DNA of 64,000 nt. Origin: Candidatus Limnocylindrales bacterium (GTDB lineage Bacteria > Moduliflexota > Moduliflexia > Moduliflexales > JAUQPW01). Shown piece after piece: positions 1-5,249 of this stretch. Positions within the stretch are counted from its first letter, which is position 1. Every line of letters begins with the position of its first letter. The stretch covers positions 62,001 to 126,000 of the forward strand of contig DATMBG010000043.1 of the NCBI GenBank assembly GCA_035559535.1, written 5' to 3'. The notes beneath the pieces were generated by a model. It did not search any database, was not told where the DNA came from, and saw only the letters and a program-made list of their open reading frames with translations. The position numbers and the translations under genes were made by a program.

Positions 1-230
1 GTGGCCCAGATGTTGATAAATACCACCTTGCCTCGATAATCTGACAACTTTCTTTCTGAATCATTTAAATCCGGGAAAGTAAAGTCCGGGGCCAAAGACC
101 CTATTTTAAGAGGTTCAGGTTTTTGAAGGGTTTTTGAGCTTTTATCCCTCTGTATAAAAGCCAGCGCAAACACAGTTAGAACCAGAAGGATCGGGCTGAT
201 CACAAGGATCAAAATTAGCTTTTTCTCCAT
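1..230 (-). CDS. TlpA/ResA-family thiol-disulfide oxidoreductase (5' part; runs off the window)
   Basis: Hand translation from ATG at 230: MEKKLILILVISPILLVLTVFALAFIQRDKSSKTLQKPEPLKIGSLAPDFTFPDLNDSERKLSDYRGKVVFINIWA(T). It has an N-terminal TM and the redoxin APDF...GKVVFINxWAT motif. The active-site CxxC lies just outside the window. Not in the ORF track. Confidence 0.85.
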   Translation of the reverse strand, partial: MEKKLILILVISPILLVLTVFALAFIQRDKSSKTLQKPEPLKIGSLAPDFTFPDLNDSERKLSDYRGKVVFINIWA

Positions 231-352
231 ACCTGATGCGGTCATATTCCAACAAAGTTGAGATTAGCCCGGACTTCCACTTTTCTCCTTTTAAAGTTTG
301 AAAGTAGAACTTTTTGTCTCCCTTCAGGCTTTTTAAGTTAGCTGGCTTCAAG

Positions 353-712: not shown

Positions 713-846
713 GGTTACTTACCTCCTATTTGTCGGTAATTCGGTAAAAAGGTTAAAAAGATCTTTCCTTACTTCCGATTTTTTAATTTAAAGGGCTCTT
801 CTCCAGGGTTAGAGATCTTCCCTCTTCTGACTCTATACAGGTAGAA

Positions 847-1770
847 CTAATCTGTAACCTTCCAGTGCGCTCCCCCATCCGAGCTTTTGAAAACCTTTCC
901 ATCGCTACTTCCTGCATATAATACCCGGGTTTCAGGGTGAATGACCAGAGTTGTAATGTTGCTTAACCCTTCCCCCACTCGATTCCAACTCCGTCCCTTA
1001 TCCTGGGATTTATAAACCCCATCTTTCATTCCCACGTAGAACACCTGAGGATCTTGGGGATCCAATATAAACGTATAAACCGTTTGGTTTGCAGGTAGAC
1101 CACCCGCTTTGCTCCATCCTCAAAATCAGTCCATGCTTAGATAAAGACCATCGGCTGTCGCAGCTATCAACCAGATTCCTCCCATTCCTGTGGGGACGTT
1201 GGCTACCGTTAGGGTCTTTACATCAGCAGGAGGCCCATCGTCCACCCGTTGCCAACTCGCTCCTCCATCCTTGGATCGGTATAGCCCTTTATCTACTACC
1301 CAGGCATGAAGCCGTTTATCCGTAGGATGAACGGAGAGTCCATGGACATCGCTACTGGGAAGTCCATTTTTAACCGTCTTCCAGCTTATCCCTCCATCGG
1401 TACTCTTAACTACCCACATGTCGTGGCCCGCTGCATACATCACTTGAGGATCTGTCGGATCTAGTACTAAAGCCATAAAGTCAAAGTTTTTAAGATCCCC
1501 TTTGAGATCCAGCTTTTGCCAGGTTTTTCCTTCATCGGTGCTTTTATAAAGTCCATGATGAGTTCCCTTGAAAAGGGTATTATTCTTGGGGTTAAGAACT
1601 AAAACATGGAGATGCTCCATTTCGGTCATCTCCATCCTATGACTTTCAAGTAAGGAGGATTCCTTCTCTTGGGCAGAAACTTCCCTATTGAGAGCCAAGA
1701 AAGAGATCCTTCCTCCAAAAACTGCCATAGTCAACAGGGTCAAGATTAACCACAGATTTTTTCTCATCAT
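847..1770 (-). CDS. Exported BNR/Asp-box (YCF48/VPS10-like) beta-propeller with two in-frame TGA codons; candidate selenoprotein (U-F-U)
   Basis: ORFs 1126..1812 and 847..1065 share one frame. The joining sequence reads LYLSMD-TGA(1126-1128)-F-TGA(1120-1122)-GWSKAGGLPANQTVYTFILDPQDPQ with no other stop. It has repeated SxDxGxxW boxes. Likely start is ATG 1770 after GGAGG, giving about 307 aa. Confidence 0.8.
1085..1122 (-). promoter_or_regulatory. Candidate bacterial SECIS element
   Basis: mRNA reads UGA-GGAUGGAGCAAA-GCGGGU-GGUCU-ACCUGC-AAACCA. The 6-bp upper stem (1091-1107) has a GGUCU loop and begins 12 nt after the second UGA. UGG/CCA can form a lower pairing. It resembles the E. coli fdhF SECIS apical GCA-GGUCU-GC. 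Confidence 0.65.
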
Positions 1771-1860: not shown

Positions 1861-2799
1861 TTATTGCCAGGTGTTTCCACCATCCTGACTTTTAAGAATG
1901 TTTCCCCTGGCCGTTAAAGCATAAACCCTCCTGGATTCTACAGGATGCCGGGCTAGAGCCAGTATGTCTTCCCTAACCCCTTCTACAGGACTCCAGCTTA
2001 ACCCCTCATCCACGGTCTTAAGCATCCCTTGTTGCGTCCCCCCTAAAATCACCTTCGGATTTTCGGGATCTATCAACAAAGAAAATAACGGCTTCTCAGG
2101 GGATCTCTCCCTGACTGGCTGCCAGCTAAACCCTCCATTACGGGTCACTAAAAAACCGGCACTGGTTCCGGCATAAAGGGTTTCCGACTTTTCCGGATGA
2201 ACGGCTAAAGACCACACATTTATCTTGGCTAACCCCGGGCTGATCAATGACCAGCGTTCCCCTCCATTCGAACTTTTAAAGAGGCCTACACCTACTACCC
2301 AGATATAGACCTCCTGGGGATTATGGGGGTTAGAGGTCATGGCATGGACATCGGGGTGTTCAGGCAACCCTTTGACCAGGGAAATCCACCTCTGCCCTCC
2401 ATCGAGACTTTTCATAATGCCGATGTCATGGCCACTGGCATAAATCACCTGATCGGATCTCTGATGCACATAAAGTCCCATCACATCGGTTTTAGTGGCT
2501 TCTCCGGGGACTACCTCCCAGGTTTTTCCTTCGTCGGTGCTTTTGAAAAGCCCTCCATGAGCCCCTACCAGGAGGGTATCTGGATCTCCAGCCAGAACAG
2601 CCAGAGAGTGGAGATGCTGTCCTTTGATAAGAAGTTCTTCTCTTCCTATAGCGCTACCGGAAACCTGAATACTAATCTTTAAACCAACAAAAGCCAGCAC
2701 AAAGGTTATAATCAGACCCGTTATAATTTTATATAGGTTAGTATACCGCTGCATTTTAGATCGTTTCATCTTACTCTGTTTTCCCTTAGGTTCTTTCAT
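1861..2799 (-). CDS. BNR/Asp-box beta-propeller protein, membrane-anchored/exported; paralog of 847..1770
   Basis: N-terminal TM; HLHSLAV, GAHGGLFKSTDEGKTW, ASGHD, PDVHAM motifs shared with the neighbour; multiple SxDGGxxW repeats. Confidence 0.85.
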   Translation of the reverse strand: MKEPKGKQSKMKRSKMQRYTNLYKIITGLIITFVLAFVGLKISIQVSGSAIGREELLIKGQHLHSLAVLAGDPDTLLVGAHGGLFKSTDEGKTWEVVPGEATKTDVMGLYVHQRSDQVIYASGHDIGIMKSLDGGQRWISLVKGLPEHPDVHAMTSNPHNPQEVYIWVVGVGLFKSSNGGERWSLISPGLAKINVWSLAVHPEKSETLYAGTSAGFLVTRNGGFSWQPVRERSPEKPLFSLLIDPENPKVILGGTQQGMLKTVDEGLSWSPVEGVREDILALARHPVESRRVYALTARGNILKSQDGGNTWQ

Positions 2800-3304
2800 A
2801 GGACTCTCTTTCTCCTTTCGCCCCGTCAGGACCGGCAGATACCGGCTTAATCTCCGTCACAACCTTTGTTTGGACCTTTTCCTCATTCATCTTGCTTTCA
2901 TCCCAACCCTGTTCCCCTTCTCCAGGTAGATCCTTTCCAGCAGTCTCCTGGGCTTTTGGTAAGTCAGGCAATTCTTTAATTGATTTTGGGGAAAATTGTT
3001 CGGCAGATTTGTCCATAGGGGCAGGTTTTAAACCTGCTCTGACTCCAGGTGCCCCTTCTACTTCTGAAGACTGGCCTTTAGAGGGTTGCATCCTTCCCAT
3101 CCTCCACATCATATACCCCATCATGAGAGGACAGGCCAGGGCAGCCAGGAAAGAAGCATTAATTCCAAATGCCCCCAGAACTGCAGCCCCTGCCAGAGGG
3201 CCCACACAACACGCTCCCATTTTGAGCAGGTCTTTTACACCCATTTGCAGGTTATTCGTACCTTGACTACTCTTATCATCCTCGTTCTTATTACAGCAAT
3301 TCAT
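2786..3304 (-). CDS. Small Cys-rich membrane protein (DUF2933-like LACPLMM motif) with low-complexity tail
   Basis: MNCC start, MGACCVGP, TM segment, LACPLMMGYMMW; GGAGG SD. Confidence 0.65.
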   Translation of the reverse strand: MNCCNKNEDDKSSQGTNNLQMGVKDLLKMGACCVGPLAGAAVLGAFGINASFLAALACPLMMGYMMWRMGRMQPSKGQSSEVEGAPGVRAGLKPAPMDKSAEQFSPKSIKELPDLPKAQETAGKDLPGEGEQGWDESKMNEEKVQTKVVTEIKPVSAGPDGAKGERESYERT

Positions 3305-3331: not shown

Positions 3332-3550
3332 TTAGCAACACCCGACTCGATGACAAGATCTATAAGTAATCTGTTCTTCCGGCTCGGATCTGAATCGGGT
3401 CACTCCGGCTCGCTGAGCTCGAACCTCCTTAACATATTCTTCGGCATGCTCTTCTGAGCATAAGTACTCTCCGAATCGTTTAATGTTGAGATCTCGAACC
3501 TCTCGTCCGCAAATCGGACAATATCTTTCTGTGGTTTGAATGATCATCAT
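3332..3550 (-). CDS. Small TRASH/YHS-like metal-binding protein
   Basis: CPICG...FGEYLCSEEH motif, C-terminal CHRVGCC, AAGGAG SD. Confidence 0.7.
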   Translation of the reverse strand: MMIIQTTERYCPICGREVRDLNIKRFGEYLCSEEHAEEYVKEVRAQRAGVTRFRSEPEEQITYRSCHRVGCC

Positions 3551-3621
3551 TGTTATCTCCTTCCAACCCTGGAAAGGTGAAAGGTGAAAGTCCTTCTAAC
3601 CTTTAACCTCTCACCCTGGGT

Positions 3622-4377
3622 TCATAACATCCAATAAAGAAAGGTATCATGAAATCCCGCCAACAGGAAAATGATCCCGGCTATTCGACGCAGGTACTTA
3701 TCCAGATTTTTCATTTTTTTCACATAGGATTCAGCCAGCTCGGATCCAAAAAGAAAGATGGACGTGAAGACCAGGAGTGGCAAAGTGGTGCCCAGCGCAA
3801 AGATAGCCGGGAAGACCCATCCTCCGGTAGCGGATAAACTCAAGGGAATGACAACACTGAAAAACAACAGGAATAAGGTCGGGCAGAAAGCAAAGGAAAA
3901 AGCCACGCCTAGGAGAAAAGCTCCCCAGATACCTTGCTGTTGAGCTTGTTCTTTCAACCACCGGCTGAAACCTTGTCCCAGGGATATCCCTGGTTTAAAC
4001 ACCCCCAGCATATATAATCCAACCAGGATCATCAGGGGACCCAGAGCTTTTTTCACCACGATGATCACCGGGATGGAAAGGGCTTGGGCCTGAGTCCCAA
4101 AGAAGACCACCAGGCCCCCAATCAAGGAATACACCAGAACCTTCCCCAACAGGTAGGCCAAAGCAGTCCTGGCAGCCTGGAAAGGGTTAGAGAGTCGTCG
4201 AGATACATAGGCAATGGCGGTGGCATTGGTGGTCAACTGACAAGGGGCCGTAGTTCCTAAAACTCCCATGAGCAACGCGCTTAGAACCGGAATATTAAGG
4301 GCATCGCTTATTTTTGTAATGGGATCGGCAACCGAAGCATAGAATTTACTTAGAAAAGTGTACCACTCAAGTAACAT
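3622..4377 (-). CDS. CcdA/DsbD-transmembrane-domain-like (DsbD_2) protein
   Basis: About 6-7 TM helices with the two intramembrane Cys motifs GTTAPCQLTTN and FSFAFCPT. Confidence 0.8.
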   Translation of the reverse strand: MLLEWYTFLSKFYASVADPITKISDALNIPVLSALLMGVLGTTAPCQLTTNATAIAYVSRRLSNPFQAARTALAYLLGKVLVYSLIGGLVVFFGTQAQALSIPVIIVVKKALGPLMILVGLYMLGVFKPGISLGQGFSRWLKEQAQQQGIWGAFLLGVAFSFAFCPTLFLLFFSVVIPLSLSATGGWVFPAIFALGTTLPLLVFTSIFLFGSELAESYVKKMKNLDKYLRRIAGIIFLLAGFHDTFLYWML

Positions 4378-4538: not shown

Positions 4539-5249
4539 TTATTTTTCAGGTTTTTCAAGCAAATGGGCTATCAGCTTTCTCGGCTCATCCTTATCCCACA
4601 ACCGTGCTCCCATAGCTGCCCCGATAATAAACCCCTCTGGATCAATCAAATACGTGACAGGAATTCCTCTTACTGCATAAGCCTTCGCTACCCTTTGCTC
4701 AGGATCCAAAAGTGCCTGGTAGCTGAGCTTGTGCTCCTCCATATAAGATTGAACTAAGTGGGCCGAGTCTCCCTGGTCGACGGAAATAGCCAAAACAATT
4801 AACCCTTTATCCTTAAATTCTTGATAAAGTTTTTCAATGGTTGGTTTCTCAGCGCGGCACGGGCCGCACCAGGTAGCCCAGAAGTTTAAAAATACCAGTT
4901 TACCCCGAAACTCCTTTAAACTAACCTCCTGCCCCTCCAGGTTTTTCAGGGTAAAGTCTGGGGCTTCAATTTTCTCCTTGAACTTCTGCACACCAGCTTT
5001 AACAAAGAGATCTTCTTCGGCTGAAGCTAAGAGCGTCTCGACTTCCACGGCCTGGGACTCATCTACCTGGAGACCGGCCGGTCTTTTGTCTGTTGTCCCT
5101 TGTCGGTTCTCCGTTGTCTGTTGTATCCATACCTTGACCTCTGACAACGGGCCTTTAATAACTGACCAGGAACCACTGATCAGCAACAAAAGAGCTATTC
5201 CACTGACCAGGATCAAGATAAAAATCCTTACTATGATTTTTTTAAGCAT
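4539..5249 (-). CDS. Membrane-anchored TlpA/ResA-family thiol-disulfide oxidoreductase
   Basis: N-terminal TM; APDFTL...GKLVFLNFWATWCGPC; cis-Pro loop GIPVTYLID. Confidence 0.9.
   Translation of the reverse strand: MLKKIIVRIFILILVSGIALLLLISGSWSVIKGPLSEVKVWIQQTTENRQGTTDKRPAGLQVDESQAVEVETLLASAEEDLFVKAGVQKFKEKIEAPDFTLKNLEGQEVSLKEFRGKLVFLNFWATWCGPCRAEKPTIEKLYQEFKDKGLIVLAISVDQGDSAHLVQSYMEEHKLSYQALLDPEQRVAKAYAVRGIPVTYLIDPEGFIIGAAMGARLWDKDEPRKLIAHLLEKPEK

Follow-up and report, generated by a model that had tools for sequence, protein, structure and literature searches.

Can a single selenocysteine insertion sequence (SECIS) hairpin serve two UGA codons that lie six bases apart? The question is raised by a gene on the minus strand of a 64,000-nt stretch of contig DATMBG010000043.1 from a Candidatus Limnocylindrales bacterium (hereafter the window), in which one short hairpin follows two in-frame UGAs. 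The original prediction, made from the letters of this stretch, had offered two alternatives, namely that one SECIS decodes both UGAs or that the first UGA is decoded by other means such as a recoding tRNA. Comparative data favour the first alternative, while the second is disfavoured by the finding of one tRNA with a UCA anticodon among 44 in the genome. Here, we report that the locus is quite probably one gene for an exported beta-propeller protein with the motif D-U-F-U-G-W (U, selenocysteine, Sec), in which one SECIS hairpin would direct the reading of both UGAs as Sec. The features on which this reading is built are the following.

847..1770, minus strand: predicted selenoprotein gene for a secreted BNR/Ycf48-like beta-propeller, from open reading frames (ORFs), read-through translation, Pfam and an AF2 model
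1126..1128, minus strand: first in-frame UGA (TGA 1128-1126), codon 229 from ATG 1812 and 215 from ATG 1770, at the first Cys of the C-F-C motif
1120..1122, minus strand: second in-frame UGA (TGA 1122-1120), codon 231 from ATG 1812, the family-wide selenocysteine position
1108..1119, minus strand: single-stranded spacer of 12 nt that joins the second UGA to the stem, GGAUGGAGCAAA (encoding G-W-S-K)
1102..1107, minus strand: 5' arm of the putative SECIS hairpin, GCGGGU (columns 25-30 of alignment A6)
1097..1101, minus strand: apical loop GGUCU, holding G23 and U24 when the U of the second UGA is counted as 1, as in E. coli fdhF
1091..1096, minus strand: 3' arm of the putative SECIS hairpin, ACCUGC (columns 36-41 of alignment A6)

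A propeller gene with two in-frame UGA codons

The gene ends at a TAG stop codon (849-847) and has two in-frame ATG codons. ATG 1770, which gives a product of 307 aa, is likelier to be the start than ATG 1812 (321 codons, or 321 aa, with TGA read through), because GGGAGG at 1786-1781 lies ten nt 5' of it and because gene callers begin the N-terminal fragment there; these fragments, P0001 and P0002, are 214-aa clusters equal to a start at Met15 (ATG 1770). The minus-strand stretch 1131-1078 opens, 5' to 3', with GAC TGA TTT TGA, continues with the spacer and then reads GCG GGT GGT CTA CCT GCA, so that the two UGAs stand in the protein context S-M-D-UGA-UUU-UGA-G-W. The two TGAs are not assembly errors, since the pair recurs in a genome of the same genus (G001, 93% identical) and in the metagenome contigs L096 and L097, and since a 397-nt contig from an unrelated public sequencing run matches window positions 800-1156 with zero differences. 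Among the 40 of 119 differences listed between sequencing-run contigs and the window, none falls within 1091-1128.

The stem GCGGGU/ACCUGC with its GGUCU loop starts 12 nt past the second UGA and 18 nt past the first, exactly where the original prediction had placed it. The loop is thus 18 nt from the second UGA and 24 nt from the first, and the six stem pairs are G-C, C-G, G-U, G-C, G-C and U-A. The 17-nt hairpin at 1091-1107 is the predicted bacterial SECIS of the propeller gene.

The protein carries a signal peptide and matches Sortilin-Vps10, PSII_BNR (39.6 bits) and BNR in Pfam. In the AF2 model, which has a mean pLDDT of 85.7, the all-beta blades run unbroken across the UGA positions.

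The motif across the family

A protein search retrieved 1245 relatives of the propeller protein. Among the best 120 of the relatives' protein clusters, 59 contain an internal CxCG[WFY], 38 end at ...DC[FL], 13 end at ...D and 10 are of other kinds, which is the pattern expected if gene callers halt where a TGA takes the place of the second or the first Cys. The residues C229, F230, C231, G232 and W233 are invariant in an alignment of 51 rows (the window protein and 50 full-length homologues), and both window UGAs align with the two Cys residues of the D-C-F-C-G-W carried by Cys homologues.

The motif was also counted at the DNA level, using a species-genome collection (52 loci in species-level genomes of many phyla) and a metagenome collection (the best 80 of 320 relatives). 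The metagenome-assembled genome (MAG) labels of the 52 loci are Methylomirabilota/Rokubacteria, Syntrophobacteraceae, Binatia, Tectomicrobia, Nitrospinota, Acidobacteriota, Chloroflexota, Actinomycetota, Eisenbacteria, Gammaproteobacteria and Thaumarchaeota. The census comprised 132 sites from the window, L015 and 129 of the 132 fetched loci; it left out L081 (frame-shifted motif region), L095 (partial match), L142 (truncated) and a frame-shifted second copy on L066 (U-F-U, G-F type). Some redundancy is present, as L015 is contained in L044, and the pairs L096/L097 and L100/L101 are identical across the gene.

As a result, D-C-F-U was found at 103 sites, D-U-F-U at 27 and D-C-F-C at 2 (81, 21 and 2 distinct 60-mers, respectively). 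The second motif codon is TGA in 130/132 sites and Cys in 2/132, and the first is Cys (TGT/TGC) in 105/132 and TGA in 27/132. The census thus points to the second UGA as the standard Sec codon of the family and to the first UGA as a replacement of its partner Cys. Both C-F-C sites of the census are in Thaumarchaeota-labelled MAGs; these loci, L049 and L064, are the sole C-F-C forms in the species-genome scan and are 40-48% identical to the bacterial Sec forms.

Conservation and covariation of the hairpin

The 130 Sec-form sites align without a gap over 54 nt and without insertions or deletions in the 12-nt spacer, and for this reason the distance to the loop is constant, the loop beginning 18 nt past the second UGA in 130/130 sites. 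The family consensus consists of the UGA, an 11-nt spacer (GGN UGG NNN NN), GGUGGGC, GGUCU and GCCCACC, with a stem of 6-7 bp; a stem of at least 6 bp is present in 102/102 distinct Sec-form 60-mers. The loop is GGUCU in 107/130 sites, and the remaining sites have GGGCU, AGUCU, AGGUU, AGGCU, AGUUU, GGUUU, GGUCC, GCUCU or CGGGU; every one of these loop types has a G at position 1 or 2.

In this alignment (101 distinct rows), 94.3% of the cells are paired. As a control, the 3' arm was slid by 1-3 columns, and paired cells then amounted to only 33-54%. Five of the inner six pairs never break, and the sixth is broken in 1 of the 101 rows. Double-sided changes occur at 4 of the 7 pairs, in 25 cells, and 0/500 shuffles reached the covariation score; since the rows are related, this figure is no probability. 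Covariation among TGA-containing homologues was one of the checks named in the original prediction; an earlier, less powerful set of 52 sites agreed. RNAalifold over the 54 nt returned the 6-bp helix of the hairpin alone, with no second structure and no extended lower helix. Third-codon positions within the stem are almost fixed and change only as compensated pairs. Relative to the consensus, the window's copy of the hairpin carries two compensated pairs (C-G replaced by U-A, and U-A by C-G); in codons, GGC/CUG became GGU/CUA, both at synonymous third positions, and GUG/ACC became GCG/GCA.

Four C-F-C loci, two from archaeal MAGs and two from alphaproteobacterial plasmids, were compared at the DNA level. 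In 4/4 the best stem at the corresponding place has 3-5 bp, i.e. the hairpin is absent, and the peptide after G-W differs, with G-G-L-P missing in this register. The hairpin is therefore conserved in UGA-bearing homologues (130/130) and absent from Cys homologues (4/4), the opposite of the distribution that the original prediction had named as refuting.

The energy of the hairpin was also compared with shuffled sequences. The 21-nt hairpin by itself folds at -9.0 kcal/mol (z = -2.87; 3/200 shuffles were as good), and its 61-nt context is unremarkable, as described below. The case for the hairpin cannot rest on folding energy because the thermodynamic support is modest; the strong evidence that sets the putative element apart from chance is comparative, not thermodynamic.

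Geometry relative to known SECIS elements

The original prediction had likened the hairpin to the SECIS of E. coli fdhF, and this likeness is close. In E. coli K-12, fdhF reads UGA, 11 nt, a 7-nt 5' arm and GGUC, with the same 18-nt loop distance; in both genes the hairpin is inside the ORF right after the UGA, with a spacer of 11-12 nt, a stem of 6-7 bp and a GGUC loop 18 nt on. The loop bases G23 and U24, named essential for the fdhF SECIS in the part of PMC8659212 available to us, fall at the same positions in the propeller hairpin because the loop distance is the same. In most members 11 nt separate the second UGA from a stem of 7 bp, and in the window 12 nt separate it from a stem of 6 bp, with GGUC at positions 22-25; this agrees with the minimal fdhF-type SECIS, a 17-nt stem-loop that is 11 nt from its UGA and holds G23/U24 in its loop. 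The first UGA, at 17-18 nt, does not have this spacing.

The propeller hairpin differs from that of fdhF in the following respects. The bulged U (U17) of the fdhF 5' arm is lacking, the stem being perfect and G+C-rich in the window and in the consensus; no extended lower helix is conserved around the UGA; and an extra UGA is present 6 nt upstream in 27/130 propeller sites.

A more general bacterial SECIS (bSECIS) consensus, as given in the accessible text of PMC13188914, has a loop of 3-9 nt, an upper stem of 4-16 bp, a G in the first two loop positions, a UGA distance of 16-37 nt and a minimum free energy of -7.5 kcal/mol or lower. Judged by this text, both UGAs of the window are within all four constraints (loop of 5 nt and stem of 6 bp; G present; distances of 18 and 24 nt; -9.0 kcal/mol). 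The bSECIS model has one UGA per element, whereas in the propeller gene one element is placed for two.

Repeated changes at the first UGA

A maximum-likelihood tree was built from 114 distinct rows with the motif columns masked. The tree needs 4-5 changes between U-F-U and C-F-U, at least 3 of which are forced by well-supported branches. U-F-U is found in a ten-row clade, in the three-row clade of the window, in a Nitrospinota/Tectomicrobia pair and on several single long branches. In one shallow clade (support 99), 4 U-F-U and 3 C-F-U rows differ by TGA versus TGY at the first codon and have an identical hairpin. The second TGA and the hairpin are intact in 27/27 U-F-U sites, and no shift of the hairpin toward the first UGA was seen in any U-F-U lineage of the 130-site alignment.

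Sec machinery and the tRNA that reads UGA

The window's genome assembly (5.6 Mb, 58 contigs, 95.8% complete) contains the components for Sec insertion, each above its model cut-off:

tRNA-Sec: 74.5 bits against a cut-off of 47, the one match of the Rfam tRNA-Sec model above cut-off in the genome
SelB: 408.6 bits against 242.25, in the genome
SelA: 622.1 bits against 267.9, on the window's own contig
SelD: 388.6 bits against 125, in the genome, itself with one in-frame TGA

ARAGORN found 44 tRNAs, and the only one with a UCA anticodon is tRNA-Sec; the remaining matches of the Rfam tRNA-Sec model are Ser, Leu, Cys, Gly and Tyr tRNAs. Three marks of a bacterial selenoprotein gene are found together here, namely UGAs that align with Cys, tRNA-Sec, SelA, SelB and SelD above cut-offs, and a downstream frame conserved under selection (see below). 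Within the window, no tRNA gene was found, and an Rfam search of the whole window at gathering thresholds gave zero matches.

The tRNA set bears on whether the first UGA could be read without SelB and tRNA-Sec, by a UGA-decoding tRNA of the tRNA(Cys) type or by near-cognate tRNA-Trp or tRNA-Cys, giving a C/W-F-U product with the hairpin serving the second UGA only. A Cys at this position would be functional, as Cys is the homologous residue in 105/132 sites, the first UGA sits 6 nt beyond the fdhF-type spacing, and a recoding tRNA gene could be missing from an assembly that is 95.8% complete in 58 contigs. However, tRNA-Sec is the genome's sole UCA-anticodon tRNA, a free UGA suppressor would read ordinary UGA stops too, and the several origins of U-F-U in different phyla-level lineages would each need their own recoding tRNA. 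Near-cognate read-through normally reaches a few percent at best, which is hard to square with deep clades that have U-F-U only and are under purifying selection. We therefore regard a separate decoding of the first UGA as unlikely.

Evidence for translation past the UGAs

The 85 codons 3' of the motif are open in 22/22 U-F-U rows used, and dN/dS past the UGAs is 0.08-0.29 in 7/7 U-F-U pairs (0.04-0.20 upstream), which indicates that translation continues through both UGAs. These results also bear on the possibility that the first UGA is mostly a true stop, so that the U-F-U genes are leaky, low-expression or decaying variants of C-F-U whose main product is an N-terminal fragment of 228 residues. 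In support of such a stop, two consecutive recoding events should be inefficient, with about 40% recoding per UGA given for E. coli in the sections at hand of PMC7026636; one base change, expected to be frequent, turns TGY into TGA; the U-F-U and C-F-U alleles of the shallow clade are intermixed as in a polymorphism; and dN/dS is higher downstream than upstream in 5/7 pairs. Set against these points, the ten-row clade and three other lineages are all U-F-U with long internal branches, and the downstream codons remain open at low dN/dS in all rows and pairs used. Truncation after blade 4 would leave the propeller open, as the predicted model needs its C-terminal blades, and the second TGA and the hairpin, intact at all 27 U-F-U sites, would be unselected if translation ended at the first. 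A predominant stop at the first UGA is thus improbable.

It is far less credible still that the hairpin is a by-product of coding G-G-L-P and no SECIS, the UGAs being read or unread for unrelated reasons: the stem does overlap conserved codons, the 61-nt fold is unremarkable and Rfam gave no match, but the third-codon positions of the stem hardly vary, and then only as compensated pairs, G-G-L-P in register and the hairpin are both missing at 4/4 Cys-form loci, and the loop sequence and distance are those of fdhF, with G at loop position 1 or 2 in 130/130 sites.

Weighing a single SECIS for two UGAs

Several points weigh against one SECIS serving both UGAs. The C-F-C loci compared are few (n = 4), the covariation depends on few independent events, and the stem also codes the conserved G-G-L-P, so that protein constraint adds to its conservation. 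The 61-nt context folds no better than shuffles (z = -0.01; 91/200 fold at least as well), and the window has the family's weakest hairpin (6 bp, -9.0 kcal/mol); in a typical member, L045, the hairpin reaches -19.2 kcal/mol over 36 nt. The excess of downstream over upstream dN/dS in 5/7 pairs (window versus L096: 0.17 versus 0.04) could stem from a C-terminal part that is less constrained or less expressed. The recoding of about 40% per UGA reported for fdhF in E. coli, in the same sections of PMC7026636, means that a double UGA site should cost yield. In addition, the E. coli minimal SECIS is described, in the part of PMC8659212 available, as acting 11 nt from the UGA, and by this standard a UGA at 17-18 nt could be decoded poorly.

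We nevertheless favour one SECIS for both UGAs, because the hairpin is family-wide and fixed to the second UGA, because Cys changed to UGA at the first position with no shift of the hairpin, and because the downstream frame is under purifying selection. With a single UGA-reading tRNA and no second structure, one hairpin serving the first UGA from 24 nt is the simplest reading. On these comparative grounds, the shared SECIS has the best support among the readings, and we consider it likely.

Proposed decoding of the two UGAs

We propose the following sequence of events. SelB.GTP.Sec-tRNA(Sec) bound to the hairpin would decode the second UGA in the canonical manner, because the loop starts 18 nt past this UGA with the geometry of E. 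coli fdhF. The first UGA would have arisen from a Cys codon by one base change (TGY to TGA) and would be decoded via the same hairpin from 6 nt further off, with the loop at 24 nt. While the first UGA occupies the A site, the hairpin should still be wholly outside the ribosome and intact, since its distance from the mRNA entrance would exceed that of the fdhF geometry by 6 nt. After Sec insertion at the first UGA, SelB.GDP would depart, and two translocations later a second SelB ternary complex would load on the same hairpin for the second UGA. SelB binds the SECIS with a kon of about 10^8 M-1 s-1 (PMC7026636, in the available sections), and binding this fast could let the second complex load before the second UGA arrives two codons on. 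The product would have a vicinal selenol pair, U-F-U, which adjoining TlpA-like thioredoxins and a DsbD_2/CcdA transporter, to judge from the gene neighbours, could keep reduced or use, and the protein would belong to an envelope cassette for metal or redox handling.

We infer the reading of the first UGA as Sec by SelB, the reloading step, its efficiency and the biochemical role of the product. The proposal as a whole is held with moderate confidence: a single fixed SECIS would lead to Sec at two UGAs 6 nt apart, SelB would tolerate a tether 6 nt longer than in the fdhF geometry, a second SelB.Sec-tRNA would reload within two elongation cycles, and an exported propeller with a U-F-U diselenide or selenol pair would act in a metal/thiol-redox cassette.

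The family offers a natural experiment on bacterial Sec decoding, in which the hairpin is static while UGA has replaced the Cys codon upstream at least 3-5 times. Two little-studied questions are concerned, namely the reach of a SECIS from its UGA and the use of one hairpin twice in quick succession. If the proposal is true, SelB of these soil and groundwater lineages would tolerate the 6-nt longer tether, and the natural C-F-U and U-F-U alleles, one base apart, would make a test system for the spacing tolerance and the processivity of bacterial Sec insertion.

Relation to known double-Sec proteins and propeller families

Closely spaced double Sec is already known, as the accessible portions of earlier reports indicate. 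UxU was reported in 2007 in a rhodanese-related sulfurtransferase from the Olavius symbiont metagenome (PMC1976440), UxxU sequences followed in 2008 (PMC2398784), and two-Sec families of the UxxU and UxxxxU types appear in Table 1 of a 2026 review (PMC13188914). The description of the arrangement as mechanistically unusual in the original prediction was therefore too strong, as loop distances of 18 and 24 nt are both within the 16-37 nt range and UxU and UxxU had been published before. In the available text on these proteins, namely the UxU rhodanese, the UxxU proteins (Prx-like, metal-binding protein and FmdB-like) and the UxxxxU protein TsoB, a second Sec likewise replaces a partner Cys and the two UGAs are 6-15 nt apart upstream of the SECIS region. 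The fold is a propeller here and a rhodanese or thioredoxin there. The UxU and UxxU reports give, in the same portions, alignments only and are silent on which hairpin serves which UGA, whereas in the propeller family the hairpin is fixed over 130 sites and position 1 toggles.

No BNR, Ycf48 or propeller family is among the 119 families of Table 1 in the 2026 review (PMC13188914). A literature search combining selenoprotein with Ycf48, BNR or beta-propeller found no such report. The propeller selenoprotein family thus appears to be uncatalogued. It would be a widespread and overlooked family, with 320 metagenome relatives and 52 species-level genomes, in which gene callers split the gene in two.

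The Cys homologues are 35-47% identical over the full length and share the invariant motif, the His residues and the neighbours (TlpA, CcdA/DsbD and a second Ycf48-like protein), but have Cys at both positions, no hairpin and another sequence after G-W. They are annotated as 'hypothetical protein', 'YCF48-related' or 'WD40/YVTN/BNR-like repeat-containing protein'. For the window protein, no NCBIfam model reached its cut-off; the best was the F510_1955 family glycosylhydrolase (NF045728), at 125.4 against 175 bits, which makes the protein a relative and not a member by the NCBI criterion. Foldseek and a PDB sequence search returned generic BNR/GH74/Ycf48/WD40 propellers without a functional clue. 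The seven-bladed BNR-type propeller fold is shared with Ycf48/HCF136 (Foldseek hits 2xbg, 5ojp and 5oj5, TM about 0.52), and only the fold is shared, as the score of 38.8 is below the 326-bit equivalog cut-off of NF010237 and the context here is envelope thiol-redox and metal handling, not photosynthesis. We know of no C-F-C motif in Ycf48. The motif is likely to be the active site of a family that is now mislabelled glycosyl hydrolase, sialidase or Ycf48-like.

Neighbourhood and possible role

The genes around the propeller gene in the window are as follows.

1..245, minus strand: N-terminal part of a second TlpA-like thioredoxin that runs off the window start, with WCPPC just outside the window and no Sec
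1861..2799, minus strand: immediately upstream paralogue, a BNR/Ycf48-like propeller, 34% identical, with N-G-G-F-S-W at the place of the motif, no C-F-C and no UGA
2786-3304, minus strand: small Cys-rich protein (172 aa; N-terminal CC, GACC, weak match to DUF2933)
3332..3550, minus strand: small Cys-rich protein of 72 aa, with CxxC near the N-terminus and ending ...GCC, without a Pfam match; relatives at 26/132 fetched loci (tblastn)
3622..4377, minus strand: DsbD_2/CcdA-like membrane electron transporter (Pfam PF13386, 93.1 bits); relatives at 29/132 fetched loci (tblastn)
4539..5249, minus strand: TlpA-like periplasmic thioredoxin with WCGPC (Pfam AhpC-TSA, Redoxin and Thioredoxin); relatives at 52/132 fetched loci (tblastn)

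The last three genes are conserved neighbours, and their counts are lower bounds, many of the fetched loci being just 1-4 kb long. On the two plasmids, the Cys homologue has DsbE/TlpA immediately upstream; on its other side are DUF1573, SCO, another Ycf48-related gene, DsbA and CcdA. The two propellers of the window (847..1770 and 1861..2799) may act as a pair, because the Cys homologues on the two plasmids also have a second Ycf48-related gene nearby. The Cys homologue cluster adjoins mer genes on the Jiella pelagia plasmid, and a copper P-type ATPase and PCu(A)C on Sinorhizobium sp. M14 pSinB. Envelope metal or redox chemistry is suggested by TlpA, DsbD/CcdA, SCO and the mer and copper genes nearby, and we infer from this gene context a role in envelope thiol/selenol redox or metal handling, with C-F-C, C-F-U or U-F-U as the reactive pair.

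On the Jiella pelagia plasmid (L176), a 'GDCCVxC domain-containing (seleno)protein' is annotated at 1527-1751 in the mer operon beside the Cys homologue cluster; this annotation is a further tie of the cassette to mercury or selenium chemistry.

Further gene copies and candidate selenoprotein genes

Two fetched loci carry two gene copies each, a C-F-U copy with G-W and a U-F-U copy with G-F: L072 (at 1198 and 2118) and L066 (at 1292 and 2110). The U-F-U copy on L066 has an apparent frameshift upstream of the motif. On L081, at about 3460-3560, a deletion or frameshift right after T-G-M-G-G puts the motif out of frame, which may be an assembly error or a pseudogene.

A crude scan of the genome for a TGA followed by a hairpin gave 37 candidates, mostly noise, and a GGUCU loop was found only at the propeller gene; five candidates that were folded had heterogeneous hairpins. 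Candidate selenoprotein genes in the same genome include an OsmC-like gene with G-A-U-T-S-M-T on C52 (minus strand, offset 4155 of the reverse strand), a thioredoxin-like gene with F-F-U-I-P-C on C45 (plus strand, 35199) and a gene with A-P-T-U-D-E-A-G on C42 (minus strand, 131210). The hairpins predicted for these three candidates lie at differing distances from their UGAs.

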